Translations under genes and position numbers: made by a program
Origin: Kiritimatiellia bacterium
GTDB lineage: Bacteria; Verrucomicrobiota; Kiritimatiellia; RFP12; UBA1067
Reading direction: 5' to 3'
NCBI GenBank assembly: GCA_017395505.1
Contig: JAFPUH010000005.1
Span: 11,851 to 75,850 of the forward strand
DNA length: 64,000 nt
Shown here: piece by piece, positions 38,977 to 54,793 of the stretch
How the letters are laid out: every line of letters starts with the position of its first letter
Numbering within the stretch: position 1 is the stretch's first letter
The notes under the pieces: model-generated
The model's database searches: none
Told to the model about the DNA's origin: nothing
Seen by the model: only the letters and a program-made list of their open reading frames with translations

Positions 38977-39012
38977 GTGCAGTAAAATGAGAATTTTGGT
39001 ATAATGCGCCAT

Positions 39013-42000
39013 ATGAAGATTGATTCCGAGGAGCGGTTTTTCACGAAGCTCGACTGGGCGGCGTTCTGGACGGCTACACTTCTGACTTTCGCCGTCTACT
39101 TCTTCACGCTTGGTCCGTCCGTCGGGCTTGAAGACTCCGGTGAGCTTGCCACGGCCGGGGCGCATCTTGGAGTGCCGCATCCGCCGGGGTATCCTTTCTG
39201 GACGCTCTGCAGCTGGATATTCTGCAAGCTGTTCTTCTGGGTCACATACATGGGCCATCCGACGCCGGCGTGGGCGATAAGCTGCTTTTCGGCGGTGGCC
39301 GGGGCCTTGGCAGCCGGCTGCACGGCCATGCTGATATGCAGGTCGGCGCACGATTTCGCGGGTGGCGACGGCGAAGGCTGCAGCGGGGTGCTTTCGTTCG
39401 GCGGCGCGGTGGCCGGTGCGCTGACGTTCGCGCTTTCGCCGGTCGAGTGGTCGCAGTCCACGATAGTCGAGATATATTCGCTCAACGCGCTGTTCCTGAT
39501 GTGGGTATTCCTGCTGTCCTACAGGTGGATGCGCAAGCCGTCCGACAAGATACTCTTCTTCACCGCGTTCGTGTTCGGGCTGGGGCTCACGAACTATCAG
39601 GTGCTGCTGTTCGCCATAGTGCCGCTGGCGATAATAATACTGATGACGAACATCGCGCTGTTCAGGGATGTCTTCATCTACCTCATACCGGTCGCGCTGA
39701 CCTATCAGGTGCTGCAGATCGGGCAGCTCGTTCGTGCGGACAGGTTCATGCAGTCGGATGCGATAAACAAGCATGTCGCGCTTGTTGCGACATCGACGTG
39801 TCCTTCGACGTTCTTCATAATACTCGGTCTCGTCGTACTCGTCGGCGCTCTCGTGGCGGCGGCGGTTCTGAGGGAACGCGGCGACGGCGCACGCGCGAAG
39901 AAGGCCGTGCTTTCGTTCGGCGGCGGCGGTGCGGCGGTGATATTGCTCTCGGCTTTCGTGTTCACCGGAAAGAACTCGTGGACGGGCATATTCGCGCCTG
40001 TCGCGCCGCTCATCGAGCCGTGGCGCTATGCGTTCATAGCCGCGCTCGTGGCGGGGTCGGTTGTCGCGGCGGTGCTTGCGGCGCTTGAGGACGCAGACCG
40101 CATAACCGAGCCGAAGGTGCTAAAGCCGCTCGGCGTCTCGGCGGCTCTCGCTCTGCTCGCCATACTTTTCGCGATCGCGGTGCCAGAGGCGGGAAGCGGC
40201 GGATACCTGGGCCCGAAGTATCCGTGGGCCAAGTCGATCACGGTGTTCTGGCTTCTCATGCTGACGCTCTTCGGGCTTTGCGGCATGACGAAGAAGGGGC
40301 TTTGCTTCGCGATACCTGTCGCCGGAATGCAGATTGCGGTGTTCGCGCTTCTCAGGAACGGCGCGATGAACGGGCTGACGCATCCGCAGAGCTGGTGGTT
40401 CGGCTGGCCGATCGCCTGGAACTTCGTGCTGCTCGCTCTCGCGTGGCTTACGCTGCCGCACGGCAGGAGCGTGGCGGGGGCGGCGTTCTTCGCGCAGCTC
40501 GGCGTCTCGTTCTACGCGTACATGCCCATCGTAAGCGATCTCCGCAATCCGCCGATGAACTGGGGCTACCCGAGAACTTGGGAGGGCTTCAAGCACGCCA
40601 TCATGCGCGGACAGTACGAGGCGATCGGCGTTCCGACGTTCACCGGCGCGGGGCAGTTCTTCGATTTCATCGGCAAGCAGATGGTTCACTACTTCGAGGA
40701 TGTGAAGGTCCAGTTCACGGATCTGCTGCTGCTGTTCGCGCCCGTGCCGTTCATCGCGGGCCACTGGGTGGTTCGCAAGGAGCACAAGAAGACGTTCTGG
40801 CAGTGGATGGGCGCGGCGGCGGCATGCTTCCTGATGATGAGCTTCCTGCTGATACTGCTCGCCAACGTGAAGGGCGACGTGCAGGACGGGTTCATCCAGA
40901 AGGTGAAGTTCATATCGTCGCACGCCATGATAGCGCTTTGGATCGGCTACGGCCTCGTCTTCGCCGGGGTGCTGCTTGTGCGCTTCCTGCCGTCTGCGAC
41001 GTGGCTGAGATTCGGGAAGTTCTCTTCGGAGTCCGTTACGCCGCGCCGAGTAGCGTATGCGTTTGCAGGGGTTTCGCTGCTCGTCGCGTTCATATATCCG
41101 ATAGTCCAGAACTACACGGATGACCGCATGGTGTTCGAGCTTGGCGGCTGCGAGCAGAACGGCCACACCTTCGGCTGGCAGTTCGGCGCGTACCAGCTTG
41201 ACGGCGCGAAGGCCATCAAGGACCAGCTCGTCGCGGACGAGGAGCCTCTGCCCGATCCGGACTGGCCGGAGGCGATGGAACCTTTCTCGATATTCTTCGG
41301 CGGAACCGATCCGGGCAGGTTCGTGCCGACATACATGATATATGCGGCGGACTACCGTCCCGACGTCTACCTCATAACGCAGAACGCGTTGGCTGACGAC
41401 ACCTACATGAGCGTCGAGCGCGACCTCTACGGCGACGAGATATGGATACCCTCCAAGGAGGACAGCGGCGAGGCCTTCAACATATACGTCGACGAGGTGC
41501 AGCGCGGCGTCAGGCCGGCGAACGGCGATCTCAGGATAGAGAACGGCAAGGTTCAGGTGACTGGCGCGCTGGGCGTGATGGAGATCAACGGCATACTGAC
41601 GAAGATGATGTTCGACCACGACAGGCTGAGGCATTCGTTCTACGTCGAGGAGAGCTACGTAATAAAGTGGATGTATCCATACCTTTCGCCGCACGGGCTG
41701 ATCATGAAGATCAACCGCGACGAGACTCCCTACGACGCGAGCACGGCGGCCAAGGATCAAGACTTCTGGGACTGGTACACGAGGCGGCTGCTGAAGGATC
41801 CGATGTACAGGCGAGACTTCGCCGGACAGAAGTCGTTCTCGAAGCTCAGGGCGGCGATCGCGGGGCTCTACGCCAACCAGGGTCGCCACGCCGAGGCGGC
41901 TCAGGCTTTCCGCGAGGCTTGCATGCTGTATCCGGCGTCGCCCGAGGCGGCGTTCAGGTATGCGCAGGAGTGTTTGCTGCCGTTCAAGAAGTGGGACATC

Positions 42001-42525
42001 GCGCTTGAGCTGATGGACTATACGGATCTGATCGATCCGCGCAACAAGAGGACGGCCACACTGCGCGATTTCGTGAAGCGCATACGCGAACTTGCGGCGC
42101 AGGTCGAGGTGCTCGAGATGAAACTGCGCAGGAATGGGAAACTCTCCACGCAGGAGACGTTCGCCCTGGCCCACGCATACTATGGCATGGGCCGCACGAT
42201 GGAGGCGGCTCAGCTTGTGCGTCCGCTGATAGACGAGACGTCTGAGCCGCTTGTGCTGAAGGTGATGTCCACCATGTTCATCGATGCGAGGCTCGACTCC
42301 GATGCCGAGCGCTGCCTCGAGAAGTATCTGAGGGCGTCGCCGAACAAGGACGCTCCTGCGTGGCTCGAGCTGGCGAAGCTTCAGCACCGCACCGGACGCA
42401 GACAGGCCGCGCAGAGGAGCTTCATGGCGGGCTACAGGCTGGAGCCGCAGATGGTTTTCGAGAAGCTGCAGCGCGATCAGGAGCTGTATGAGATAGCCAT
42501 ACCGCTGCTCAAGAGGCGACAATGA
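39013..42525 (+). CDS. DUF2723 / TMEM260-like GT-C membrane glycosyltransferase with C-terminal TPRs
   Basis: EDSGELATAGAHLGVPHPPGYP, QSTIVEIYSLN, GLGLTN, PPMNWGYPRTWEGF; start reassigned to ATG 39013, 7 nt after TGGTATAAT. Confidence 0.82.
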   Translation: MKIDSEERFFTKLDWAAFWTATLLTFAVYFFTLGPSVGLEDSGELATAGAHLGVPHPPGYPFWTLCSWIFCKLFFWVTYMGHPTPAWAISCFSAVAGALAAGCTAMLICRSAHDFAGGDGEGCSGVLSFGGAVAGALTFALSPVEWSQSTIVEIYSLNALFLMWVFLLSYRWMRKPSDKILFFTAFVFGLGLTNYQVLLFAIVPLAIIILMTNIALFRDVFIYLIPVALTYQVLQIGQLVRADRFMQSDAINKHVALVATSTCPSTFFIILGLVVLVGALVAAAVLRERGDGARAKKAVLSFGGGGAAVILLSAFVFTGKNSWTGIFAPVAPLIEPWRYAFIAALVAGSVVAAVLAALEDADRITEPKVLKPLGVSAALALLAILFAIAVPEAGSGGYLGPKYPWAKSITVFWLLMLTLFGLCGMTKKGLCFAIPVAGMQIAVFALLRNGAMNGLTHPQSWWFGWPIAWNFVLLALAWLTLPHGRSVAGAAFFAQLGVSFYAYMPIVSDLRNPPMNWGYPRTWEGFKHAIMRGQYEAIGVPTFTGAGQFFDFIGKQMVHYFEDVKVQFTDLLLLFAPVPFIAGHWVVRKEHKKTFWQWMGAAAACFLMMSFLLILLANVKGDVQDGFIQKVKFISSHAMIALWIGYGLVFAGVLLVRFLPSATWLRFGKFSSESVTPRRVAYAFAGVSLLVAFIYPIVQNYTDDRMVFELGGCEQNGHTFGWQFGAYQLDGAKAIKDQLVADEEPLPDPDWPEAMEPFSIFFGGTDPGRFVPTYMIYAADYRPDVYLITQNALADDTYMSVERDLYGDEIWIPSKEDSGEAFNIYVDEVQRGVRPANGDLRIENGKVQVTGALGVMEINGILTKMMFDHDRLRHSFYVEESYVIKWMYPYLSPHGLIMKINRDETPYDASTAAKDQDFWDWYTRRLLKDPMYRRDFAGQKSFSKLRAAIAGLYANQGRHAEAAQAFREACMLYPASPEAAFRYAQECLLPFKKWDIALELMDYTDLIDPRNKRTATLRDFVKRIRELAAQVEVLEMKLRRNGKLSTQETFALAHAYYGMGRTMEAAQLVRPLIDETSEPLVLKVMSTMFIDARLDSDAERCLEKYLRASPNKDAPAWLELAKLQHRTGRRQAAQRSFMAGYRLEPQMVFEKLQRDQELYEIAIPLLKRRQ

Positions 42526-43253
42526 AATACCAGTACTTCTATCAGACGAAGACCAACGAAAACAGGTCGGGCTGGATATCAGCCCGAAACCGCGAGTCGG
42601 CCTACACCATTCTGAGGAAGCAGGGCATACGGCCTTACAGGATAATAGGCGACGATCCTGTGAACTGGCGGCCGTGGGCGATCGGCGCTCTGATCGCGCT
42701 GCTCGCGGTATCGCTGGTCGTGGCCGTATTCGTGGCGGTCCGCGCCGGTGACGACAGGCGGCCCATGCCCAGAGGCCAGATCTACGGCGATGTATCGGTC
42801 ATAGCGTCGGGAGTGTTCTCCGATTGGGCGGACGTGCTGGAGAGTCCCCTCGACAGGTTTCTCGCCGCCTACGCCCAGCCCGGTTCTGCGGCGCTGCCGC
42901 CACTAATGTCAGCAGACGAAATCGCCTCGTTCGAGGCCGAGCTTCAGAACGGCGTGAAGTATGTCGACGGAGAGCCCACGGAGCATCGCCAGCTCAAGAA
43001 CATCGTCGCATTCCTTCGCGAAGAGATGAGGGAGCATCTGGCGTCCGGAGAGACCGTAGGGCAGTACATGGATTTTCTCGAGGAGCGTCAGCAGGGCGAG
43101 CGCGAGTTCCGCGACCATGCCGTGGAGAGCCTCGGCAAGGTGCCGGCGAGCCACCTGCACCAGGCGTGGCTCGGCGTGAACGCGAGGCTTCGCGAGCGTG
43201 GCATGGCGACGCTCGAGATGCCGCGGCAGCTTGGGGAGGAGGGCGACAGGTAG
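42522..43253 (+). CDS. Single-pass membrane protein of unknown function; N-terminus resembles the PilC/GspF N-terminal segment
   Basis: YQYFYQTKTNENRSGWISARNRESAYTILRKQGIRPYRI, then one TM; ATGA overlap with the upstream gene. Confidence 0.6.
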   Translation: MKYQYFYQTKTNENRSGWISARNRESAYTILRKQGIRPYRIIGDDPVNWRPWAIGALIALLAVSLVVAVFVAVRAGDDRRPMPRGQIYGDVSVIASGVFSDWADVLESPLDRFLAAYAQPGSAALPPLMSADEIASFEAELQNGVKYVDGEPTEHRQLKNIVAFLREEMREHLASGETVGQYMDFLEERQQGEREFRDHAVESLGKVPASHLHQAWLGVNARLRERGMATLEMPRQLGEEGDR

Positions 43254-43256
43254 GTT

Positions 43257-44660
43257 ATGGAGAACGCAATAGCCATAGTCGGCATGAGCTGCCGCTTCGC
43301 AGGTTGTGCGAACATATCCGCGTTCTGGGATGCCATAATGAAGCAGCGCTGCATGCTGACGCTGCCCGGACAGGACGTCGAGCTGCCTTTCGGGCAGCGC
43401 AACGTGTTCGAAAGGACGTATCCTACGCGGGTGGGCCAGCTCGGCGAACTGTATTCCTGCGTGCCCACGATGCAGAACTTTCCGCGACAGGTAAACGCCG
43501 GCGAGAACCAAGACCTCTATTTCGCGACTCAGCTTGCGTTCGACGCGCTGGCTGACGCTTCCATGCGCCCTCACGCGAGGGAGCATGTCAACGGATCGAT
43601 CCGCTTCGGCTATGCGCCGGCGTTCAACTCGTCGACGGTCAACTGGCTGCAGCACACGTTCGTGCTGGACCAGACGATCGACGTCATACGCAGGTTCTTC
43701 CCGACGGCGCGCGAGGATTCGTTGGAGGAGGTGAAGGCGAAGCTGCTCGAGTCGCTGCCTGCGCCGGATGCAGCGTCTTTCCTGCTCGGCACGGGGTACC
43801 GCTTTGCGTCGTGGCTGGCGCGCGAATGTTCGTTCGGCGGCGTTGCGACGATAATGGATGCGGGAGTGCTGACGGGTGCGGTGACGCTCATGGATGCCGC
43901 GAGCGACCTTCTTTCGCGCAAGGTCGATGTGGCGTTGGCCGGCGCGCTGACGCCGCCGCTGAGCCGCGCGTATCTGGAAGGGCTTTCTGGCGAGGTGGAC
44001 TTCACCGACAAGCCTGAGCTGCATCCGTTCTCCCAGGATTCGGACGGCACCATACCAGGGGAGGGCGGGGCGTTCTTCGTGCTCAAGCGCAGGGAAGACG
44101 CGCTCCGCGACCATGACAGGATATACGCCCTCATTCGGGCCGTGTCGGTCGGGCACAATCCGTCGGACGATCCGTCGGCGATCCTTTCGAAGGCGACGAT
44201 GGTTGCCGGAGTGCCGCCGAAGACCGTTGGCCTGATCGAAGCGGACGGCAACGGCATCTCAGCAGGGGAGCGGCGAGAGGTCGCGGCGATACAGAGGATA
44301 TGGGGCGAGCACAAGCCTGGCACTCCGCTCGTCGGCGTAGGATCGGTCAAGGGCAACATCGGGCACACGATGCGCGCGGCTATGGCGGCAGGCGTCGTAA
44401 AGGCCGCGCTCGCCCTGCACAAGAAGGTGCTGCCGCCGCAAGTCGCGACGGAGCGTCCCCTCGAAGCGATGTCGAACCTGTCGTCCAGCGTATACCTGCT
44501 GCGGCAGCCGAGGCCGTGGATAAAGGGCGAGGCGTCGAATCCAAGAAGGGCGGCCGTGCTCGGGGCGAACTTCGATCCCGTAAGGCCAATAGGCTCCGCA
44601 TCGCCGGGCGGACGTTCCGCAGTCGTGATACTTGAGGAAGAGCCGGAGGTCAGGGGATGA
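43257..44660 (+). CDS. Stand-alone PKS ketosynthase-fold protein, catalytically degenerate (CLF-like)
   Basis: AIAIVGMSCRFAG, PFSQDSDGTIPGEG, VLKRREDALRDHDRIYA, SVKGNIGH; DAGV in place of DAAC and EADG in place of EAHG. Confidence 0.85.
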   Translation: MENAIAIVGMSCRFAGCANISAFWDAIMKQRCMLTLPGQDVELPFGQRNVFERTYPTRVGQLGELYSCVPTMQNFPRQVNAGENQDLYFATQLAFDALADASMRPHAREHVNGSIRFGYAPAFNSSTVNWLQHTFVLDQTIDVIRRFFPTAREDSLEEVKAKLLESLPAPDAASFLLGTGYRFASWLARECSFGGVATIMDAGVLTGAVTLMDAASDLLSRKVDVALAGALTPPLSRAYLEGLSGEVDFTDKPELHPFSQDSDGTIPGEGGAFFVLKRREDALRDHDRIYALIRAVSVGHNPSDDPSAILSKATMVAGVPPKTVGLIEADGNGISAGERREVAAIQRIWGEHKPGTPLVGVGSVKGNIGHTMRAAMAAGVVKAALALHKKVLPPQVATERPLEAMSNLSSSVYLLRQPRPWIKGEASNPRRAAVLGANFDPVRPIGSASPGGRSAVVILEEEPEVRG

Positions 44661-47600
44661 GCGAACTTGTCATTGTCCGGGCTGAGGATACGAGGGCTCT
44701 GGTCTCCGAGATGGAGCGGATAGCCGGGTTTATCGACAGGGTGCCGACGGCATCGCTTCTCGACGTGGCCTACACGTGCGCGCTTTCGACAGGCGACTCT
44801 GTGATAGCATTTGTCGTCGACGGACTGCAAGACCTCCGCACGCGTCTAGGCTCGGCGATTACGAGGATAGGCGGCGGATCTCTCAAGCGGCTCAGGGACA
44901 AGAGCGGAACCTACTGGTACGGCAGCCATCTGCTGGGCGAAGGCGGCGGAAAGCTGGCTTTCGTCTTTCCGGGGGTGATGTCGTTCTACCCGGACATGAT
45001 GAGCGATCTTGCCATCAAGAGCGAGTCTTGCCGCAGCGCATTCGAAGAGCTTGAGGAGGCCATTGTGCATGAGGGGGCAGGCGATTTCACGCCCTCTAGC
45101 TTTGTGTTCCCTCCGGCGCCGTACTACAGGCATGACGCCGACATATTCAGCTCCGGCGCGTACGCCCAGGCACTGGTCGCGACGTATGCCGGATGCGAGG
45201 CCGTGGCGCGTGTGCTTGATGGTATGGGCCTCAAGCCGGACGGAGTCGTAGGCTTCGCCGGCGGAGATCTCGCCTCGGTCGTAAGGGCCGGAATGACGGG
45301 GCGCGACATCAAGAGGCATGACAGGATACGCTTTCTCAGGGAGATATACGACATCGTCGACAAGGCGGTTGACCACGCGGGACTGCCGAAGATGGCGATG
45401 GTTTCGCTGCTGCTGAGGCACGAGGGTGAGGCGGACGAGGTGCTGGCTTCATTCCCGGAAGGCAAGGTTACGCTCGCGATAGACCTTTCGCCAAGGCAGA
45501 AGACGTATGCGATAGAGAGCGATTTCGCCGAGGAGGCCATGCGAGCGTTTTCCGCAGCTGGCGTAAGGGCGATGAAGCTGGCTCTAGACAGGCCGTTCAA
45601 TACGCCGATGTGCTCGCGCCTCGTGCCGGCGATCAGGAAGCTGGCCGACGCGTGGATACGCAAAGATCCAGTCTGCCCAGTGTATTCGTGCGCGAACGCC
45701 GCAACGATGGAAGGCCGCCTCAAGAAGATAAGGGTTGCCGTCGCAGAACGGTGGGCGAGCCCAGTAAGGTTTGGCGAGACGGTCAGGCACATGTACGCTG
45801 ACGGCTACAAGGTATTCCTCGAGGTGGGGCCACGCGGGCTGATGACGACGGCGGTCGACGATGCGCTGCGCGATGTCGAGCATGCGGCGATAGCCACCAA
45901 CTCCATACACAGACGCGGAATACCGCAGATGCAGCATGCGCTTACGCAGCTGGCCGCTCTCGGCGCCAAGCTGGACATAGTGTCGTGGATGAAGCGTTAC
46001 GGTGCGAAGGAGCTGGATTTCGACTCGACTTTCGTCGCCGCCACGAGGCGTGAGACCGAGATGAAGCTTTCGCGCGAGTTTCCGAGACTGACGTTGCTTT
46101 CGGACGATACGCCGCTCAGTGTGGCAGCCGCTTTCTCGGAGCCGAAGGGTCGTGGCGCAAAGGCGGCGGCGAGAGCTGCGGCTGTCGCGGCGCAGGCGAG
46201 GAAGCTGAGGCAGTTCGACTTCGGGGCGCTGAATCCGCTGGTGTCCGACGCCGATACGCTGAACCACAGCCCTGGGGTGTCCATCGAGCTGAAGAAGCGC
46301 TTCAGCGTGAAGGAGGCGCCGTTCATAGGCGACTTTGCGCTCGGCGGCACGCAGCTTTCGTATTCCGAGCCGACGCTTAAGGGTCTGATGCAGATGACGA
46401 TGCCTCTCGCGGCCGAGATAATGGGCGAGACGGCTTTGATGCTTGTGCCGAACAGGACTCTCGTTGCCATCGAGGATCTGTCCTGCAGACGGTCGGTCGC
46501 GTTCGAGGATGGAGCGCTCACCGTTCTCATACGCGCGGAGAGGGTCGCATCTAGCAGTCCGGAGCTCGCGGCGGTAAAGGTACAGTTGAGGGACGATTCG
46601 CCCGGAAGCGCCTATACCTGGCCTGTCATGGAGGCTACATTCGTGCTGGCGAAGGCTCTGCCGGAGCCGCAGCCCGTGACTGTGGTGCCGCAGTTCAAGC
46701 CGAGGACGGTGCACTGGTCAGGACGCGACATATATCCGTCGAGACTTTCCTGCGGACACAGGTTGCGCGGCATAACGTTCGCCGAGACGTGGAGCGAAAC
46801 TGGAATCGACTACGAGGTTGAGGTTCCGCAGCTTTCGGGGTGCGTCACATACACTCGCTTCCCGCTCTGGGTCGTCAATCCGCTGCTACTTGCGATAATC
46901 GTGAGCGGCTATTCGCTATGGCACAGCCATGAGAGGTTCTCCCGCTGGATAGGCAACGAGAGGATGGACGACGCCTATTCGTCGCCTTTCAGGATGCGCA
47001 GGCTCGACATCATCGCGCCAATCCCGAAGGAGGGCTCGAAGATCAAGTGCTACCTGCGTCTTACCGGCGTTACGCCGAAGAGCCACCTTTGCGACATAAC
47101 GGTGTCCGACGGCGACGGCGGCGCGCTGGCCGTCATAAGTGGATGGGAGGAGCGGGTCGAGCATGTGAGGCGCGAGTATCGCGATCTGATAATGCAGCCG
47201 GCTACGAGCTTCATAACGAAGCCGGTGTCGGCAGAACAGCTTGGCAATCCGTCGCTCGACGTGTCTTCTGCGTTCGTCACCGACGTTCCGTATCCTGTGT
47301 TCGAGCGGGACGACGAGGTTTGGCTGCAGACGTTTTCGCATATCGTGCTAGGGGCGAAGGAGCGCAAGGACTTCCGTCTGATGCCTGGCTCGACGGCGCG
47401 CCGGACGGAGTGGCTGTTCGGAAGGATCGCCGTAAAGGAGGCTGTGCGCAGGTTCCTGAAGGACTACTATCAGGCTAGATGGAGTGATGCGGATGTCACG
47501 ATATTCGCAGACGGCATGGGCAAGCCGTATGCGGTCGGCGCATGGATGGACCAGCTGCCGGTAAAGCTAGACATAGCCATCGCCCACACTTCGCAGTTCG

Positions 47601-47998
47601 TGATAGGGCTTGCCGCGGCGAACGCGAGGATAGGCGTAGATGTCGAGTCGGTGTCGCGCGACCTCTCGCAAGAGTTTACGGATGGCGTGTTCATGCCTGA
47701 CGAGCTTGAGCTTGCGGCCGGCGCGGCAAACGCGTCGCTTGCGATAATACGGTTCTGGTGCGCAAAGGAGGCTGTATCTAAAGCTCTCGGCACGGGCATA
47801 AGGTACAGTCCGAAAGAGATGACCGTAAGCGGCTACGAGCCTGATACCGGAAGGCTCTTCATGCGGCTCAACGGTGCCTGGGGAGAGGCTTTTAGATCGT
47901 TGAAGGGCAGAGACCTGCCCGTAACCGTAAGGACAATGAACGACCATGCGCTGGCGTTCTGCTTCCTGCCGGCTTCCATGTTCACGGATGAGTCGTAA
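44657..47998 (+). CDS. Fusion of degenerate acyltransferase, degenerate PKS dehydratase and 4'-phosphopantetheinyl transferase
   Basis: KLAFVFPG, PDGVVGFAGG, PVRFGETVRHMYADGYKVFLEVGP (AT fold); hot-dog DH-like region; EWLFGRIAVKEA, IGVDVE, FWCAKEAVSKALGTG (PPTase). Confidence 0.82.
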   Translation: MSELVIVRAEDTRALVSEMERIAGFIDRVPTASLLDVAYTCALSTGDSVIAFVVDGLQDLRTRLGSAITRIGGGSLKRLRDKSGTYWYGSHLLGEGGGKLAFVFPGVMSFYPDMMSDLAIKSESCRSAFEELEEAIVHEGAGDFTPSSFVFPPAPYYRHDADIFSSGAYAQALVATYAGCEAVARVLDGMGLKPDGVVGFAGGDLASVVRAGMTGRDIKRHDRIRFLREIYDIVDKAVDHAGLPKMAMVSLLLRHEGEADEVLASFPEGKVTLAIDLSPRQKTYAIESDFAEEAMRAFSAAGVRAMKLALDRPFNTPMCSRLVPAIRKLADAWIRKDPVCPVYSCANAATMEGRLKKIRVAVAERWASPVRFGETVRHMYADGYKVFLEVGPRGLMTTAVDDALRDVEHAAIATNSIHRRGIPQMQHALTQLAALGAKLDIVSWMKRYGAKELDFDSTFVAATRRETEMKLSREFPRLTLLSDDTPLSVAAAFSEPKGRGAKAAARAAAVAAQARKLRQFDFGALNPLVSDADTLNHSPGVSIELKKRFSVKEAPFIGDFALGGTQLSYSEPTLKGLMQMTMPLAAEIMGETALMLVPNRTLVAIEDLSCRRSVAFEDGALTVLIRAERVASSSPELAAVKVQLRDDSPGSAYTWPVMEATFVLAKALPEPQPVTVVPQFKPRTVHWSGRDIYPSRLSCGHRLRGITFAETWSETGIDYEVEVPQLSGCVTYTRFPLWVVNPLLLAIIVSGYSLWHSHERFSRWIGNERMDDAYSSPFRMRRLDIIAPIPKEGSKIKCYLRLTGVTPKSHLCDITVSDGDGGALAVISGWEERVEHVRREYRDLIMQPATSFITKPVSAEQLGNPSLDVSSAFVTDVPYPVFERDDEVWLQTFSHIVLGAKERKDFRLMPGSTARRTEWLFGRIAVKEAVRRFLKDYYQARWSDADVTIFADGMGKPYAVGAWMDQLPVKLDIAIAHTSQFVIGLAAANARIGVDVESVSRDLSQEFTDGVFMPDELELAAGAANASLAIIRFWCAKEAVSKALGTGIRYSPKEMTVSGYEPDTGRLFMRLNGAWGEAFRSLKGRDLPVTVRTMNDHALAFCFLPASMFTDES

Positions 47999-48863
47999 CT
48001 TTCCAGAGTACGCGTGCGATTACGCACTGAAGCTGGCCGCACGCTCGCCCAGGTTCGCAAGGCAGGTCTTCGATCCAAAGACATCGTGCGAGCGATGTCG
48101 CGGCGAGGATGTCTTCGGCGCCGATCCGTTCGGAGAGCTCGCCGGTGCCGCCAAGGTGAAGGGGTTGAAGCAGAGGTTCCCGGACAGGGTTCTTGTAATG
48201 ACGACCGAAAGATGTTTCGTCAACTGCAGGCACTGCACACGGCAGGGCATATTCGGGCGGACGAAGACGGTCGAGAGCGCCGATGACCTTGCAAGATGCG
48301 TTGACTACGTAAAGGCGCATCCGAAGGTGCGCGACGTGCTGCTCTCGGGCGGAGATGTTCTGACGCTCAACGACGGAAGGGTCATGGAGTTCGTCGACGC
48401 CTTCGCTAAGCTTGGGCAGATTGACATTGTGAGGGTATGCACCCGTGCGCTATGTGCAAATCCGGCAAGGGTGACGGCGAAGCTCGCAAGGTTGCTTGGA
48501 AGGTCCAGGAAGGTTTGGGTCAACACCCAGTTCAACTGTGCGGACGAAGTTACGGACGAAGCGTGTGCGGCGGCGGCCAGGCTTGTAGATGCTGGCATAC
48601 CCGTGAGCTGCCAGACGGTTCTGCTCAAGGGGGTGAATGATTCGGCGGACCAGATGCTCAAGCTGTTCAGGGCACTTTCTGCGGCCCGAATCAGGCCCTA
48701 CTACGTATTCATGTGCGATCCTGTGGCGGGCATAGGCAGGTTCAGGGTTCCGGTCGATAAGGCCAGAGCCATCGAGCGGAGGTGCGCCGAAGCGATAGGC
48801 GGCCTCTCGCTGCCGCGGTTCGTCATGGATGTGCCAGGTGCAAGGAGGAAGATGCCTATATGA
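47988..48863 (+). CDS. KamA-family radical SAM/PLP aminomutase (lysine 2,3-aminomutase-like), compact 291 aa
   Basis: RFPDRVL...CFVNCRHCTR, VRDVLLSGGD, NTQFN, QTVLLKGVNDS, YVFMCD, RFVMDVPGARRK; start overlaps the PPTase stop. Confidence 0.85.
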   Translation: MSRNFPEYACDYALKLAARSPRFARQVFDPKTSCERCRGEDVFGADPFGELAGAAKVKGLKQRFPDRVLVMTTERCFVNCRHCTRQGIFGRTKTVESADDLARCVDYVKAHPKVRDVLLSGGDVLTLNDGRVMEFVDAFAKLGQIDIVRVCTRALCANPARVTAKLARLLGRSRKVWVNTQFNCADEVTDEACAAAARLVDAGIPVSCQTVLLKGVNDSADQMLKLFRALSAARIRPYYVFMCDPVAGIGRFRVPVDKARAIERRCAEAIGGLSLPRFVMDVPGARRKMPI

Positions 48864-50368
48864 ACAAGATAGATCTGTTTAAAGAGTTCAAGCGCGCGCG
48901 CGATGAGCGTCCGCTATCCCCTGCGTTCCTTGTGGCGAGTGGCGACAGGTATCTGCCCATATCATGGCGGCAGTTCACTGACGACATAGCCGTAATCGCT
49001 TTCATAATCGAGGCGAACGTAAAGCATGGCGCGATAGGAATACTCGGCGAAAATTCGTACGAGTGGATGGTTGTGCATGCGGCATGCCTGTTCTCAGGAT
49101 CGGTAGCAGTGCCGGTTGACGTGAACCTCAACGCCGACGAGATTGCGCAGCGGCTCAAATCTGTAAAAGCGCGTGTGCTGGTTCATTCGTCGCTGTTCTC
49201 GGTCAAGTCGCACGATGTCGCGGCAAGAATGCCTGGCCTGATAACAGGAAGCTTCGGTTCTCGCAAGACGGACTTTTTCCTCAACGCCAGCAAGAAGGCC
49301 ATCGAACTTGGTCTCAAGACAATATGGTCGCGTGATTCGGTCGATGTCGAGCGCACCTCCGCCATCGTATTCACCAGTGGCACGACGTCTGAGCCTCGCG
49401 GTGCGGAGCTGACGATACGTGGAATAGAGACGTTCTGCGAGTGCGCGGCATCGGTCTTGCCGATGTCGCCGTCGGACAGGTCGCTCATGCTTCTGCCGCT
49501 CCACCACATATTCGGAATCGCAACTACGTATCTCATGCTGGTGCGAGGCGTCGCGCTCGGCGTGTGCCCAGACTTCCGCCGTATATACGACGCCGTCGAA
49601 CGGTTCAGGGCTAACTTCCTGTTTCTGGTGCCGGCTTTGGCCGAGATACTGGCGGCTAAGATATCGCAGCATGGAGACTCGGCAGCCGAAGCGCTCGGCA
49701 GCCCGATCGACTGGATATTGACTGGCGGCGCCCCGCAGCCGAGCTGTACGTATGAGAAGATGAAGAGGCTCGGCGTAAAGCTCATCACAGGCTATGGACT
49801 AACGGAGACGACCTCGCTTTACTCGCTTTCGTCGTCCAGTGGACTTTACAAGCCGGGCAGTGCAGGTTTGGTGGCGCGCCATCCGGAGGTTGAGACGGCG
49901 GTTTCGGAGGATGGAGAGCTCCTCATACGCGGACCAAGCGTCATGAAGGGCTACTACAAGATGCCAGAGCGTACGGCAAAGGCGATAGACAAGGACGGCT
50001 GGTATCACACCGGCGACATGGGCAGAATAGACGACGACGGCTTTGTGTGGGTTACCGGAAGAATCTCAAGAACGATTGTTCTCTCATCAGGCAAGAAAAT
50101 CGCGCCTGAGGAGCTTGAGGCGAAGCTACTGGCCCTGCCTGGCGTACTGGAGACGATAGTTTCCGGGGATGGCGCGAAGAGGGAGGTCGTCGCGACCATA
50201 TACGGCGATGCTCCGGAGGAAGCCCTGCGACGGGAGGTGGTGGAGCTGAACAAGACCTTGCCTGTATACAAGAGGATTTCGCGCGTGAATGTGCGTACAT
50301 CGCCGTTCCCTAAGACGGCTTCAGGCAAGATAAAGCTCAATCCGCCGGATGAGATACAGACTCGCTGA
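48860..50368 (+). CDS. AMP-binding long-chain acyl-CoA synthetase-like enzyme
   Basis: IVFTSGTT, GYGLTET, GELLIRGPSVMKGYY, WYHTGDMG, KTASGKIK; ATGA overlap. Confidence 0.88.
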   Translation: MNKIDLFKEFKRARDERPLSPAFLVASGDRYLPISWRQFTDDIAVIAFIIEANVKHGAIGILGENSYEWMVVHAACLFSGSVAVPVDVNLNADEIAQRLKSVKARVLVHSSLFSVKSHDVAARMPGLITGSFGSRKTDFFLNASKKAIELGLKTIWSRDSVDVERTSAIVFTSGTTSEPRGAELTIRGIETFCECAASVLPMSPSDRSLMLLPLHHIFGIATTYLMLVRGVALGVCPDFRRIYDAVERFRANFLFLVPALAEILAAKISQHGDSAAEALGSPIDWILTGGAPQPSCTYEKMKRLGVKLITGYGLTETTSLYSLSSSSGLYKPGSAGLVARHPEVETAVSEDGELLIRGPSVMKGYYKMPERTAKAIDKDGWYHTGDMGRIDDDGFVWVTGRISRTIVLSSGKKIAPEELEAKLLALPGVLETIVSGDGAKREVVATIYGDAPEEALRREVVELNKTLPVYKRISRVNVRTSPFPKTASGKIKLNPPDEIQTR

Positions 50369-50432: not shown

Positions 50433-51110
50433 ATGGACGAACTATATACTAGATTCGTGACGGCCACGTTCATAGCGATGGTTGTCTGCACTGTAGCCGG
50501 CGGATGCCGCACTATTGGGAAGCTCTTCGAACAGGAAGATCCCATTGATGCGGCAGCTGTCGCGAAGTATTGGGATGGGCCGCGGATTGGCCCTGGCATG
50601 GCGCTTGAGATTCAGGTTGGCTCGGCCAGCACTGCGCCCAAGGAGATGAGCGTGCTTGTGGACCAGAACGGCGAAATCACGTTGCCTTACCTCCTGCAGC
50701 AACCGGTAGCATGCGATGGCTTGGGCCTTGAGGCTTTGAAGCAGAGGCTTGTTAAGGAGTATTCGGTCTACATACGTCAGCCGCAGATTACCGTTACGTT
50801 CGGCAGGTATGACGAGCGCAGCGGCGTAAGTCCGTGGGGCACGGTCACCGTGCTGGGCGAGGTCGGCAACCCGGGGCCCGTCAACATGCCCGCCACGATG
50901 GACATGACAGTCACTAAGGTTCTTCAGGTCGCAGGTGGCGTCAAGCCGTTCGCCAACAAGTCCAAGATCATTGTGACTCGTTGCGACAAAGACGGCAACC
51001 AAACGCGTACGCGCGTCGACCTGCACGAGATCGGCGAGGATGGCCGTTTCGACAAGGATATGATTTTGAAGGCCGGTGACGTGATATACGTGCCGGAAAC
51101 ATGGTATTGA
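50433..51110 (+). CDS. Wza-like polysaccharide export lipoprotein (Poly_export + SLBB)
   Basis: Lipobox AGGC; VDQNGEITLPYL; YIRQPQITV; VTVLGEVGNPG; AGGVKPFA; LKAGDVIYVPE. Confidence 0.85.
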   Translation: MDELYTRFVTATFIAMVVCTVAGGCRTIGKLFEQEDPIDAAAVAKYWDGPRIGPGMALEIQVGSASTAPKEMSVLVDQNGEITLPYLLQQPVACDGLGLEALKQRLVKEYSVYIRQPQITVTFGRYDERSGVSPWGTVTVLGEVGNPGPVNMPATMDMTVTKVLQVAGGVKPFANKSKIIVTRCDKDGNQTRTRVDLHEIGEDGRFDKDMILKAGDVIYVPETWY

Positions 51111-51133
51111 CAATCGTTGGAGGTATTACAACA

Positions 51134-52108
51134 ATGAACAAGATAGTCAAGTGTGCAATTGCGATGGTCGCCGCGGCGCTGGCGGTTTCGTCTTTCGCTC
51201 AAGAGCCGGCAGAGACGAGGTACATGCCTTTGGCCGAGGCCCGCTCGACAATCAGCGAGGCGGTGAAGGATCCTGAGGTCATGACTGAGACCATGAGGCA
51301 GCTCTCACCCGAAGACCAGGTTATATACGTTGCCGAAGTCAATGCGGCGATTGCGAAGATGCCTGGATCGGCCGAGGAGAGGACGGCCGCGGCACTCAAC
51401 GCCAACAAGGCTGCTCTGAGGAGCGCCGCGCCAGGGAATGTGGCGAACGTGCTCGCCGAAGTCTATGCGACTGCTCCGGTTGAATCGCTTGGCGTAATAA
51501 GCGAGAACTTCGGCAAAGACCTGTTCAACCGTGAAGCCGACCAGGCGCACACCTACTCAGACGCGCAGTTCACTGCGATTGCGGAGGCTGTCGTGAAGAA
51601 GATCGCCGATCGCACCGCAAACAGCGATGACGGTGGTGTTCGTAGCGCGTTCGGAATGATGATGATGGTCAGCGCATCGAACGGGTCTATCGAAAACCTG
51701 TCCGATACTCTCATAGAGTCTCTTCCGGTTGAGGTCCGCGAAGTCGCCAAGAACGAGTGGGTTCCCGCCGCAACGGGTGAAGACAAGAGCTACGAGAGCA
51801 TGATTGCCTATTCGACCGAGGCCACGACGACCACTTCCGAACCGAGCGCGACGCTTGCGCTTCAGCTCGCCGGTCCGCAGATGCTCGACGCAATGCTTTC
51901 CGACGTGGCTGCTGGCGTTCTGGTCAACAGCGAGTCTGCGACTCCTATTCTCGACCAGTCGTTCGGTGGCTTCGGCGAGACTGTTGTCAATAACACGACT
52001 ACGGCTGGCGGAACGACAATATCCGATACTACCGAGACCGCCAAGCAGCCTGATCCTGAAGAACCATGGAATCCGGTGAATCCTGGACCGTATCCGTGGG
52101 CTGACTGA
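51134..52108 (+). CDS. Secreted helical hypothetical protein with Thr/Pro-rich tail
   Basis: Signal peptide ..SSFA; co-oriented within the export locus; no family recognised. Confidence 0.6.
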   Translation: MNKIVKCAIAMVAAALAVSSFAQEPAETRYMPLAEARSTISEAVKDPEVMTETMRQLSPEDQVIYVAEVNAAIAKMPGSAEERTAAALNANKAALRSAAPGNVANVLAEVYATAPVESLGVISENFGKDLFNREADQAHTYSDAQFTAIAEAVVKKIADRTANSDDGGVRSAFGMMMMVSASNGSIENLSDTLIESLPVEVREVAKNEWVPAATGEDKSYESMIAYSTEATTTTSEPSATLALQLAGPQMLDAMLSDVAAGVLVNSESATPILDQSFGGFGETVVNNTTTAGGTTISDTTETAKQPDPEEPWNPVNPGPYPWAD

Positions 52109-52130
52109 TTTTCAACGAAAGAGTGCTCTT

Positions 52131-53387
52131 ATGAAGAAGTTAATGATTGTCGCGGCGCTTGCCTCCTCATTCGCCGCCCAAGCAGAGATAATGGATCGTC
52201 CTACCGGCTTCAAAGTCGGTCAGCGCATGACGGTTCGCCCATATGTTTCGATGTCATACACTTATGACTCAAACGTAGCCTCCACCGAGAAGTCGAAGGA
52301 TGGATCCTCATGGAACATCGTACCTGGCTTCACGGCCGACTATCAGGGTGAGAACTGGAACCTGGAAGGCGGCGCGTTCTACCAATATCACGCCTATGCG
52401 AAAAACTCTAACAATCTCAACCAGCACAGCTACGGTCAGAACCTCGCCTACAACTGGGCGAACTCGAAGCCCGGCGAGCGCGGCTGGTCGTTGACGTTGC
52501 GTGAAAGCTTCCAGCAGATTTCACAGGATGACGATATGTCCAACCACGGTGGCCGTGGCGCGGGGCGTGATCGCAAGCAGTTCCAGTTTGCTGCGGCTGT
52601 CCAGCGCCGCATCACCGAGCGCTTGCATGGCGACGTCGAGGCGACATACTACTACCTCGATTACGACAACAGCGACCAGAAGTATGCGCCTATGTATGGC
52701 TGGCGTCGTTGGACGGCTGGCGGTCAGGTTGGCTATGCCGCATCCAAGTGGACCGATTTGCTTATTGCTGCCAACTATCAGGGCTATACGCAGGATAACG
52801 ACGTCGATCGTGGTGGCGAGGATGCGTCGAAGGGCAGACGCAATGGCCACTACACTTCGGAGTCTAAGGGCTTTACGCTCCAGACTGGTATCGGAACCCA
52901 TGCGACCGAGCGTATCAGCTACCGTTTGACAGGTGGCTGGAGCCGCTTCGAATATGCCGGTGGCGCCAAGGAGCTTGATGGCTTTACGTATCAGGCATCC
53001 TCGAGCTGGCAGATGAACAACCGCTGGACGATGATGCTTTTGGCGTCCAGCTACTATCAGCCTTCGGAGCAGGAATACGGTAGCGCCGTCCGCGTCGACT
53101 CGATTGGTTGGGGCCTCGGCCACACGATGGTTCGCGGCAAGTTGAACGCCACCTTGGATTTGAACTTCCGCCATGAGACTCGTGAATACACCGAGTATTA
53201 TGCCAGCGAGTACGATCAAGACATCCTTACTGGCCGTATTGGTTTTAACTACACGATCAACCGCTTCCTCTCGGCGTTTACGAGCCTTGAGTACCAAGTC
53301 GACTGGGTTGGCGGCAACAGCTACGGCAGGGCTTCGTATGACTATGATCGCTGGCGTTGGACCGTCGGCATGCGCTTGACATACTAA
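52131..53387 (+). CDS. Outer-membrane beta-barrel of polysaccharide export loci (BBP2/EpsL-like)
   Basis: Signal peptide; YTYDSNV; Tyr/Trp-rich amphipathic strands; ends VGMRLTY. Confidence 0.75.
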   Translation: MKKLMIVAALASSFAAQAEIMDRPTGFKVGQRMTVRPYVSMSYTYDSNVASTEKSKDGSSWNIVPGFTADYQGENWNLEGGAFYQYHAYAKNSNNLNQHSYGQNLAYNWANSKPGERGWSLTLRESFQQISQDDDMSNHGGRGAGRDRKQFQFAAAVQRRITERLHGDVEATYYYLDYDNSDQKYAPMYGWRRWTAGGQVGYAASKWTDLLIAANYQGYTQDNDVDRGGEDASKGRRNGHYTSESKGFTLQTGIGTHATERISYRLTGGWSRFEYAGGAKELDGFTYQASSSWQMNNRWTMMLLASSYYQPSEQEYGSAVRVDSIGWGLGHTMVRGKLNATLDLNFRHETREYTEYYASEYDQDILTGRIGFNYTINRFLSAFTSLEYQVDWVGGNSYGRASYDYDRWRWTVGMRLTY

Positions 53388-53388
53388 C

Positions 53389-54792
53389 GTGCTTACATTC
53401 GTGTCCAAATACGCTACGGCGGCGCACCTCGCATTGATGACGGTTGCGCCGCTCTTCCTATTCCCGTTCTGCGGGGAGGAAGCGATTGCCAAAGTTCTGC
53501 TTTGGTTTTCTCTTCTTGGGGCTGTTTGGATTGTGATGAGCCCCTCTGTGAAGGGGGATGAACGGCCTCATGATGCGCGTATGCGCTTTGCGTATGAAGT
53601 CATACGCGACCCGCTTTTTTGGGCTGGACTGGTGCTTGTGGCGTTTGCTGGCGTCCGTTCGCTGAATGGAGGCGTTGCGTTCGTCTACGATGCCGAGACG
53701 TATTCATGGTCGCTATCCCTGCCGACGATCGAGATACTGCCGGGCTGCGTCGACGGTGCCGGCACCTTGCCGTTTTCGATGAGCGTAGCGCTTCTTGTGC
53801 TGTTGCAGGGGTTCAGGCACGCCCTCGATCGCAGGGCTGTTGTTGGTTACCTTGTGTCGGCCTCTGTCCTGGCAGGCTTCTCCGCCATAGTCGCCGTTGC
53901 GGCGATGTCGTACGGCAGCAAAAGCGTACTTTCGCTGGTCGAATGCAGCTACCACACCCCATATTTCATAGGCACGGCATACGGCATCCATTTCATTTGC
54001 GGTTTCGCGGCGCTCTTCTGCTGCGTTGAGGAGAAGATGGTGGCCGCGGAACTGTTGACTGTTGTGTCTCTTGTGGCGATGGTTCTTGGGCTCGTCCTGT
54101 TCTCTCCGCCTGCGACCCTTGCCGTCTTCGCCTTGGCTTTCATTGTTGTAGCGCCGCTTTCGTTTGTCTTGCACAGGAAGGACGTCTCTGGTGCCGGAAG
54201 CCTCCGCTGCATGCTCGCTGTGGCGCTTATACTGCTATCGGCAGTTTCTCCGTTTTTCCTTTGCGACGAATCGCAGGCAATGGTTGACAGGCGTGACGCC
54301 ATCATAGCCGTCAAGATGCTGCCGGACGGGTTTATGGCTACACGTCGAGCGCTTTCCGGTATTGCCCTTAATGTCTGGAAGGAAAATCCTTGGCTGGGCA
54401 GCGGACTGGGCTCGTTTCAGCTCGACATAAAGTATTTCGCGACCCCCGAGAGCTGGTCCGTTATCTCTCCGCTGCAAACTTCTGCTACATTCGGCTGGTG
54501 GCAGCTTTTGGCCGAGCGAGGCATACTGGGTCTGCTCATGCTCGCCATGACTTGCGGATTTCTGATTTTTACGTATGTGCGCCGGTTGGTGCTTTCGTTC
54601 GAGGCAGCGCACTTCAGAAGCGTTCACATCCTTGGGCCGCTTGTTTTTCTGGTACTTGCGGCAATGGCTTTTGTAGATTGCTCTTTCCTGCGTGTCGATG
54701 TGCTCCTTGCCGGAGCCGCCGCAATGTCCTTGTCTGCGGCGGCCCTGCCTGAAGCCAGACGCGCCGATTCCAATGCAAAGGGGGTAAGGTAA
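53389..54792 (+). CDS. O-antigen ligase/polymerase-like (Wzy_C) membrane protein
   Basis: Polytopic; WKENPWLGSGLGSF; QLLAERGILG; GTG start. Confidence 0.7.
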   Translation: MLTFVSKYATAAHLALMTVAPLFLFPFCGEEAIAKVLLWFSLLGAVWIVMSPSVKGDERPHDARMRFAYEVIRDPLFWAGLVLVAFAGVRSLNGGVAFVYDAETYSWSLSLPTIEILPGCVDGAGTLPFSMSVALLVLLQGFRHALDRRAVVGYLVSASVLAGFSAIVAVAAMSYGSKSVLSLVECSYHTPYFIGTAYGIHFICGFAALFCCVEEKMVAAELLTVVSLVAMVLGLVLFSPPATLAVFALAFIVVAPLSFVLHRKDVSGAGSLRCMLAVALILLSAVSPFFLCDESQAMVDRRDAIIAVKMLPDGFMATRRALSGIALNVWKENPWLGSGLGSFQLDIKYFATPESWSVISPLQTSATFGWWQLLAERGILGLLMLAMTCGFLIFTYVRRLVLSFEAAHFRSVHILGPLVFLVLAAMAFVDCSFLRVDVLLAGAAAMSLSAAALPEARRADSNAKGVR

Positions 54793-54793
54793 A

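Follow-up and report, generated by a model that had tools for sequence, protein, structure and literature searches.

In a 64,000-nucleotide stretch of contig JAFPUH010000005.1 from a Kiritimatiellia bacterium (the window), positions 43257–47998 of the plus strand are filled by two open reading frames (ORFs). The first encodes a 467-aa protein with a ketosynthase (KS) fold, here called KSx, and the second a 1113-aa protein, here called AT-DH-PPT, in which an acyltransferase (AT) domain and a dehydratase (DH) domain precede a phosphopantetheinyl transferase (PPTase, or PPT in the composite name). An ATGA overlap at 44657, preceded by GGAGG, joins the KSx stop to the start of the AT gene, only a 3-nt spacer lies ahead of KSx, and a second ATGA overlap at 42522 joins the two genes upstream, which encode a GT-C glycosyltransferase and a hypothetical protein; the coupling by ATGA overlaps described in the first-pass annotation, made from the letters alone, was thus seen at both junctions. 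For both proteins of the pair the best NCBIfam match was PfaA, far under the family cut-off. A tblastn search of the 64 kb detected neither an acyl carrier protein (ACP) nor a further KS or PPTase, in agreement with the earlier statement that the window lacks an ACP and an active KS.

KSx matched Pfam PF00109 and PF02801 and solved structures in the PDB at E 6e-43. When it was aligned residue by residue with solved KS domains of polyketide synthases (PKSs), the DTACSAS motif paired with D201-A-G-V204-L-T-G, placing V204 at the position of the catalytic Cys, and EAHGTG paired with E328-A-D330-G-N-G, placing D330 at the position of the first His. KSNIGH paired with K-G-N-I-G-H370, so that the second His is retained, and KSx is left without the Cys-His-His triad. 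Among 27 close relatives position 204 was occupied by V, I, L, M or N, while D330 and H370 were invariant. In locus L111 a Cys stands two residues ahead of the canonical KS position.

The AT domain matched Pfam PF00698, was modelled with a high predicted local distance difference test score (pLDDT) and returned PKS AT domains in Foldseek with TM-scores up to 0.79. In alignments with solved ATs, GHSxGE paired with G199-F-A201-G-G-D and FHSP with P313-F-N315-T-P, so that the nucleophilic Ser is absent and the catalytic His is replaced by N315; neither the GHSxG nucleophile nor the xHS/T His was found in the sequences GFAGG and PFNT that take their place. Among close relatives the former nucleophile position was A, G or V. 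The GQGSQ motif paired with G106-V-M-S-F; at this site the protein's own active relatives have PGEGS, where the window has PGVMS. The segment that follows, residues 456–540, lies where some active relatives carry an ACP (PF00550 was found between AT and DH in P0150, P0159 and P0151) and where others rely on a stand-alone ACP-like gene; in the window protein this segment contained no carrier motif and gave no ACP match.

Pfam found no DH in the 1113-aa protein, although PF14765 was found in its relatives. A first AlphaFold2 (AF2) model of the whole protein was weak over DH and PPT (pLDDT 69), and residues 536–1113 were therefore remodelled on a deeper alignment, yielding a DH-PPT model with a pLDDT of 91.9 and a predicted TM-score (pTM) of 0.90. 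Foldseek recognized the double-hotdog fold, with matches to the DH domains of MlnB, CurH, CurJ and a MAS-like protein at E about 1e-14 and TM-scores up to 0.76. In the family profile alignment to active relatives, FLxDHTLG paired with F-I-G-D559-F560-A-L-G and DPVLLD(AAGQ) with N-P-L-L-L-A746, so that F560 occupies the position of the catalytic His (HxxxG) and A746 that of the catalytic Asp (DxxxQ/H), and both are missing from the domain. The Foldseek matches included His-to-Phe mutants of CurJ and CurK, whose PDB titles call them "inactive" and which carry the same substitution as F560.

The C-terminal domain has a pseudo-dimeric fold of two AcpS-like halves, since residues 911–983 and 981–1103 each align to AcpS structures, and it matched Pfam ACPS at E 5e-15 as well as NCBIfam pantethn_trn. 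It has the motifs G993-V-D995-V-E997, F1033-W-C-A-K1037-E1038-A..K1042 and G955-K-P as well as H977, the His of the (S/T)H(S/T) motif, all of them invariant among relatives, and thus the Mg2+- and CoA-binding residues of a PPTase of the Sfp type (W/KEA). These results uphold, residue by residue, what the first-pass annotation had read from the letters: a KSx without its Cys and first His but with the second His, an AT without Ser and His (GFAGG, PFN), a DH without His and Asp, and complete PPTase motifs. Its remark that GQG reads GVM is true of the site, though active relatives read PGEGS there.

To be consistent with those losses and yet active, the domains would need catalytic residues at shifted positions. 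No shifted Cys, Ser or His was found; the conserved C125 and C345 are structural and common to active relatives. We then considered selection. The ratio of non-synonymous to synonymous rates (dN/dS, omega) was saturated against locus L001 (dS 1.5–2), and a second comparison was made with a strain that is 99% identical (L195), for which dS is about 0.08 and unsaturated. KSx differed from its counterpart at 27 synonymous and 7 non-synonymous sites (omega 0.084) and AT-DH-PPT at 56 synonymous and 8 non-synonymous sites (omega 0.044). By region, omega was 0.092 for the linker and AT, 0.027 for DH and 0.024, the lowest value in the protein, for PPT. Selection on AT and DH was as strong as on the neighbouring enzymes, and an 86%-identical relative gave the same picture, though with dS saturated. 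The first-pass annotation had seen no stops or frameshifts, and no sign of neutral decay emerged: omega was 0.03–0.09 throughout and the reading frames are open over 4.7 kb. On residue alignments and substitution ratios alike, KS, AT and DH are predicted pseudoenzymes, catalytically dead yet selected, and the data agree with the earlier description of three dead PKS-type domains fused to an intact PPTase.

The pair is far from unique to the window. At least 594 close homologues of the same length share 54–99% identity with it, and a profile search with the degenerate clade defined below (the dead clade) found relatives in at least 403 species-level genomes. Among the 80 relatives listed of these 403, all came from metagenome-assembled genomes (MAGs) labelled Kiritimatiellia, "Lentisphaerae" or "Verrucomicrobia", barring a few that are unlabelled or probably mis-binned, and their habitats were guts, rumen, groundwater, biofilm and sediment. 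The MAGs of loci L002, L003, L149, L155, L157, L160 and L162 are titled Barnesiella intestinihominis, Gemmiger sp. or Akkermansia, probably through binning or labelling errors.

A HMMER search (E≤1e-10) for the parent family returned 2,901 representative proteins. Most of the 150 members listed look active: they are 1,100–1,990 aa long and keep GHSxG, YHT, DHTLG and LLD. Their architecture is (KS-)AT-(ACP)-DH-PPTase, read by Pfam as KS-AT-ACP-DH-ACPS, and their hosts include Bryobacteraceae, Planctomycetes, Frankia, Streptomyces, Chryseobacterium, Pedobacter and many others. The window protein is homologous to this active family along its full length, at 27–32% identity. In a maximum-likelihood tree the 13 degenerate representatives made up a monophyletic clade (support 1.0), with active split forms branching around it. 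A fused active member adjoins a gene for a 2,450-aa protein with enoylreductase (ER), KS, AT and KR (ketoreductase) domains, a 96-aa ACP-like gene and a phosphodiesterase-family gene, and at a split active locus two short-chain dehydrogenase/reductase (SDR) genes accompany KS, AT-DH-PPT, a 103-aa ACP-like gene and a gene of the same phosphodiesterase family. A small ACP-like gene recurs near many active loci. Such genes, of about 100 aa, follow the active relatives at L030:15384–15674, L116:8272–8583 and L117:3882–4178, with the motif LGFES(I/T)D and not LGxDSL, and at L030 and L116 the next gene belongs to the phosphodiesterase/nucleotide-pyrophosphatase family; this cassette of ACP-like and phosphodiesterase genes is conserved and seemingly uncharacterised.

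How the catalytic residues were lost within the dead clade was scored in 102 unique loci, the KS columns being scored in 91. The PPTase residues H977, D995, E997, E1038 and K1042 were kept in all 102 loci, which extends the first-pass reading of intact PPTase motifs to the whole clade. By contrast, no locus kept the DH His, and 44 kept the DH Asp. The AT Ser likewise survived in 44 of the 102, and the full AT His-Ser-His in 11. In the KS, the Cys survived in 9 of 91 loci and the first His in 45, with Asp in its place in 40, which make up the window's subclade. The second His, H370 of the NIGH motif, was present in 91/91, although the Cys and first His have been freely lost. An intact KS triad stands beside a Ser-less AT in L113, L115, L118, L119 and others, and an AT triad beside a Cys-less KS in L112, L140, L143–L147 and others. 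Locus L149 keeps both triads (KS Cys-His-His and AT His-Ser-His) and has lost the DH His and Asp; L149:6001–9270, with the KS gene upstream, represents a natural intermediate in the loss series. Loss of the DH His is, as the alignments read, common to the whole clade, while the KS and AT sites were lost several times independently. Such a mosaic is expected if the synthase chemistry became dispensable early while the fold and the PPTase remained essential.

We next compared the surroundings of the pair (Table 1 gives the features of the window). KSx adjoins the AT-DH-PPT gene in 96 of the 104 loci with room upstream. At L026:9198–10004 and L027:9198–10004 it is dapF, not KSx, that overlaps the AT-DH-PPT start, a KamA-like gene follows, and no KS homologue was found within the 23 kb examined. 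Searches with E. coli AcpP, a DSL-motif regular expression and the ACP-like proteins of active relatives revealed no ACP-like gene in the window or in 112 dead-clade loci from about 100 genomes, and the loci examined each gave one KS match, so that no partner synthase lies nearby. Clustering of all flanking ORFs revealed two recurrent partners, panB and a KamA-like gene, which never occur together; the other surroundings are variable housekeeping genes (dapB, dapF, era, smpB, glycosyltransferases).

In 34 loci of non-gut sublineages the gene immediately upstream of the pair, in the same orientation, is panB, which encodes ketopantoate hydroxymethyltransferase (Pfam E 4e-111). PanB starts the synthesis of pantothenate and hence of coenzyme A (CoA), the donor substrate of a PPTase. 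Of the functional associations found, that with panB alone spans deep branches, and it suggests that the PPTase is the activity on which selection acts.

Immediately downstream of the pair, 29 of 95 loci carry the KamA-like gene; every one of them belongs to the gut subclade of the window, in which Asp replaces the first KS His. Its product aligns to residues 104–340 of lysine 2,3-aminomutase (2A5H), keeps CxxxCxxC and the equivalents of R134, D293, D330 and K337, and ends three residues after the Lys that binds pyridoxal phosphate; with the 305-aa ORF call it scored 195.3 bits against a KamA family cut-off of 199.2. Its start is most likely at 47988, giving an 11-nt overlap with the AT-DH-PPT gene, and in the gut subclade the pair is probably co-transcribed with it, as judged from the gene arrangement.

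The remaining neighbours are restricted. An AMP-binding gene occupies the place shown in Table 1 in just three cases, the window, the strain 99% identical to it and L001, and a GT-C gene lies upstream of the pair elsewhere only in L001 and L195, L011 having a partial GT-C homologue about 8 kb downstream; both genes are lineage-specific context and not part of the conserved core. The AMP-binding gene was called at 502 aa, from a later start, in the sister strain, against 528 aa for the longest ORF here. The TMEM260-like GT-C protein itself is 1173 aa long (39004–42525), with tetratricopeptide (TPR) repeats at its C-terminal end. A Wza/beta-barrel/Wzy-like/Wzc-like export cluster follows downstream on the same strand, at 50433–57256. 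At 34–39 kb of the window there are sulfatase genes, which fit a Kiritimatiellia origin, and an L,D-transpeptidase gene.

Table 1. Coordinates of the KSx/AT-DH-PPT pair, its domains and its neighbours in the window, and of panB in related loci
Feature	Position	Strand	Basis
KSx, ketosynthase fold, 467 aa	43257..44660	+	Pfam KS N- and C-terminal domains, PKS KS structure alignment
KS-AT linker domain, residues 1–95 of the 1113-aa protein	44657..44941	+	Relatives match CurL-like_PKS_C and RhiE-like linker (Pfam)
Acyltransferase domain, predicted dead, residues 96–455	44942..46021	+	Pfam Acyl_transf_1, PDB alignments, Foldseek
Inter-domain linker, residues 456–540	46022..46276	+	Low pLDDT, no carrier motif
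PKS-type double-hotdog dehydratase, predicted dead, residues 541–880	46277..47296	+	Profile alignment, AF2, Foldseek
Intact Sfp-type (W/KEA) PPTase, residues 881–1113, plus stop codon	47297..47998	+	Pfam ACPS, NCBIfam pantethn_trn
Minimal KamA-type radical S-adenosylmethionine protein, 291 aa	47988..48863	+	Alignment to 2A5H
AMP-binding (acyl-CoA-ligase-like) enzyme	48782..50368	+	Pfam AMP-binding, E 1e-54
TMEM260-like GT-C glycosyltransferase with TPR repeats, then 243-aa hypothetical protein	39004..43253	+	Pfam
panB, examples from related loci	L111:1970-2791, L129:3672-4562, L140:3520-4608, 31 further loci	same strand as pair	

Considering the residue alignments, the selection on all domains and the panB association, we favour, with a probability of roughly 0.6, the joint reading that the pair encodes a working PPTase carried on a non-catalytic KS/AT/DH scaffold and that the transfer of 4'-phosphopantetheine from CoA to an apo-carrier is the activity under selection. 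An ancestor in the lineage now called Kiritimatiellia lost the DH His and probably also the carrier protein and the partner subunit, since none adjoins the pair in any descendant examined. The catalytic residues of KS and AT then eroded repeatedly and independently across sublineages, while the folds, the split KS/AT-DH-PPT architecture and all PPTase residues were kept by strong purifying selection. The PPTase would modify apo-carriers encoded elsewhere, most plausibly the ACP of type II fatty acid synthesis (FAS II) and other carriers, with the KS, AT and DH bodies surviving as a non-catalytic frame. In the model the PPTase appears to sit rigidly against the DH; the pTM of 0.90 predicts a single rigid unit, which would account for the retention of at least the DH. 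The KS-AT part probably contributes dimerisation and former ACP-docking surfaces, and it is plausible that the dead domains dock or select carriers, or bind a new ligand.

Several observations weigh against this reading. A bare PPTase needs about 230 residues, yet a further 1,350 are maintained at omega 0.03–0.09, which argues that the dead domains do more than support the PPTase. The KS H370, kept in every locus scored, belongs here as well. Some catalysis may persist outside the gut subclade, where one sublineage has a full KS triad and another a full AT triad. Nor does a simple PPTase role account for the KamA-like gene, conserved and translationally coupled as it is. Finally, the RNA evidence, which speaks for the reading, has a limit: metatranscriptome contigs from four runs (at least two of sheep gut) cover both genes, many at ≥99% identity, and two of them cross the KSx/AT junction, but these are assembled, low-depth contigs, for which DNA carry-over is possible.

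A bolder extension, which we put forward tentatively and do not ourselves expect to hold, is that Kiritimatiellia have no AcpS and that this two-protein pseudo-synthase of about 1,580 residues is their sole, essential PPTase, a housekeeping holo-ACP synthase derived from a fossil lipid megasynthase. The KS, AT and DH bodies, which once bound ACP, would in that case recruit or select carriers, and in many lineages a panB-KSx-AT-DH-PPT operon would link its regulation to that of pantothenate synthesis. With AcpS of B. subtilis and of E. coli as queries, tblastn over 1.49 Mb of Kiritimatiellia DNA recovered nothing but the PPT domain, in a search of low power that covered at most roughly half a genome-equivalent.

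It is rather unlikely, in our view, that the PPTase is only part of the function and that the dead domains have been neofunctionalised for a ligand-binding, regulatory or non-canonical catalytic role, such as sensing acyl- or malonyl-thioesters or working on beta-lysine together with the KamA-like and adenylating enzymes. Such a role would fit the selection on AT and DH, equal to that on neighbouring enzymes, the invariant family-specific motifs PDMM, FPPAPYYRHDAD, GGDLA and RPFNT, the retention of H370 throughout and of D330 in the gut subclade, and the 11-nt overlap that couples the KamA-like gene to the pair in 29 loci. However, free variation at the old nucleophile sites (V/I/L/M/N in KS, A/G/V in AT) shows that they are not a new active site, the KamA-like and AMP-ligase genes are confined to sublineages whereas the pair is class-wide, and the sequence names no candidate ligand or reaction.

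In the first-pass annotation the scaffold was instead proposed to dock the PPTase on an iterative PKS or polyunsaturated fatty acid (PUFA)-type synthase acting as its partner. In its general form, in which the dead module is an adaptor and the PPTase works only on such a synthase or on a multi-ACP protein encoded elsewhere, we judge this explanation less likely still. The homologous subunit in the active parent family does work with an adjacent ER-KS-AT-KR protein and a small ACP. By contrast, no ACP-like gene accompanies the 112 dead-clade loci, each examined locus gave a single KS match, and the neighbourhoods are of a housekeeping kind (dapB, dapF, smpB, era, panB) rather than biosynthetic clusters; the mosaic erosion of catalytic residues is what would be expected with the synthase pathway gone. 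The proposal is not supported by these results, which cover the neighbourhoods of the pair; a partner elsewhere in the genome retains a low probability.

That the synthase is still active, through shifted or alternative residues missed by motif alignment, is very improbable. Some sublineages do keep the KS Cys-His-His or the AT His-Ser-His, and the displaced Cys of L111 could be read in the same sense, but the window and its close relatives have no conserved Cys or Ser near the old sites, and the Cys residues that are conserved are shared with active relatives and structural. Moreover, the losses extend to all three domain types, the DH His is gone from 102/102 loci, no ACP was found, and the His-to-Phe change is that of the "inactive" CurJ and CurK mutants. 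A neutral relic in slow decay, as the loss of catalytic residues from three domains might suggest, is refuted by the dN/dS values (omega 0.03–0.09 per domain) and by conservation, the 4.7-kb frame being open in more than 100 genomes and apparently transcribed.

If the pair is indeed a PPTase on a dead scaffold, it would show plainly, in a natural system, how an entire megasynthase module can become a pseudoenzyme frame around a single accessory activity that has survived. Intermediates are extant, with KS alive beside dead AT and DH, with AT alive beside a dead KS, and with all three dead, and would allow one to study how catalysis is lost while structure is kept, as well as docking, dimerisation and carrier selection by PKS domains. 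In Kiritimatiellia of gut and rumen, genome-mining tools probably report such loci as type I PKS clusters; these are almost certainly not natural-product genes. Should the protein prove to be the sole PPTase of the class, it would be an essential and structurally unusual enzyme of abundant gut and rumen glycan degraders.

The closest known systems are the PUFA-synthase-like "secondary lipid" synthases, and the pair is, on homology, domain order and phylogeny, a catalytically dead descendant of their pfaBC-like subunit. A fused pfaDA and a pfaBC homologue with a PPTase domain have been described and likened to an uncharacterised Renibacterium cluster (PMC13291983), and Renibacterium was listed under Type M secondary lipid synthases by Shulse & Allen (2011; PMC3098273), in whose analysis each cluster contained KS, ACP and KR domains. 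The members of this family share the domain order of the pair, including split KS/AT-DH-PPT forms. Unlike the pair, they keep KS Cys-His-His, AT GHSxG/YHT and DH His/Asp, have an ACP, either internal or as an adjacent gene of about 100 aa, and a neighbouring ER-KS-AT-KR subunit, and their products are uncharacterised. The pair has no ACP and no active KS, and a KR was looked for only by a general Pfam scan of the ORFs at 33–62 kb, not by a systematic search. Lacking the first two, it is classed as a derivative of a Pfa-like secondary lipid synthase and is not filed as such a synthase.

The first-pass annotation had called the arrangement undescribed. This stands for the dead form, of which literature searches found no account; it does not stand for the active parent architecture, which is published (PMC3098273, PMC13291983). 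We found no paper on a fully dead KS/AT/DH module kept with a live PPTase, while there are known examples both of single dead PKS domains and of integrated PPTases. New here are the table of mosaic decay, the nesting among split active forms with stand-alone ACPs, the panB operon and the confident DH-PPT model.

Comparison with individual enzymes places the pair in the same way. Like Sfp, its PPT domain has two AcpS-like halves, GxDxE, WxxKEAxxK and a CoA-binding His; unlike the pair, Sfp is free-standing and about 230 aa long. Fungal FAS alpha likewise carries a PPT within a megasynthase polypeptide, and weak sequence matches were found to the FAS alpha PPT and to AcpS structures, but the fungal host synthase is active and its PPT modifies its own ACP, whereas here the host is predicted dead and has no ACP. 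Iterative and of type I, the enediyne PKS (PKSE; KS-AT-ACP-KR-DH-PPTase) is described as a relative of PfaA and ends in a PPTase that follows the DH; it differs from the pair in being active and having an ACP and a KR. PKSE was dropped as the closest parent, the best NCBIfam match being PfaA with no PKSE-specific family matched, and the ACP position differing: in the active relatives of the pair the ACP lies about 290 residues after the AT, not directly after it as in PKSE. Single dead domains are also retained elsewhere, as in the chain length factor (CLF/KS-beta), KS0, KSQ, AT docking remnants and the pseudo-KR and pseudo-methyltransferase (pseudo-ME) of animal FAS. Like those of the pair, they are kept for structural or auxiliary roles. 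They sit, however, in an otherwise working synthase, whereas in the pair all three synthase domain types are predicted to be dead and the PPTase is intact.

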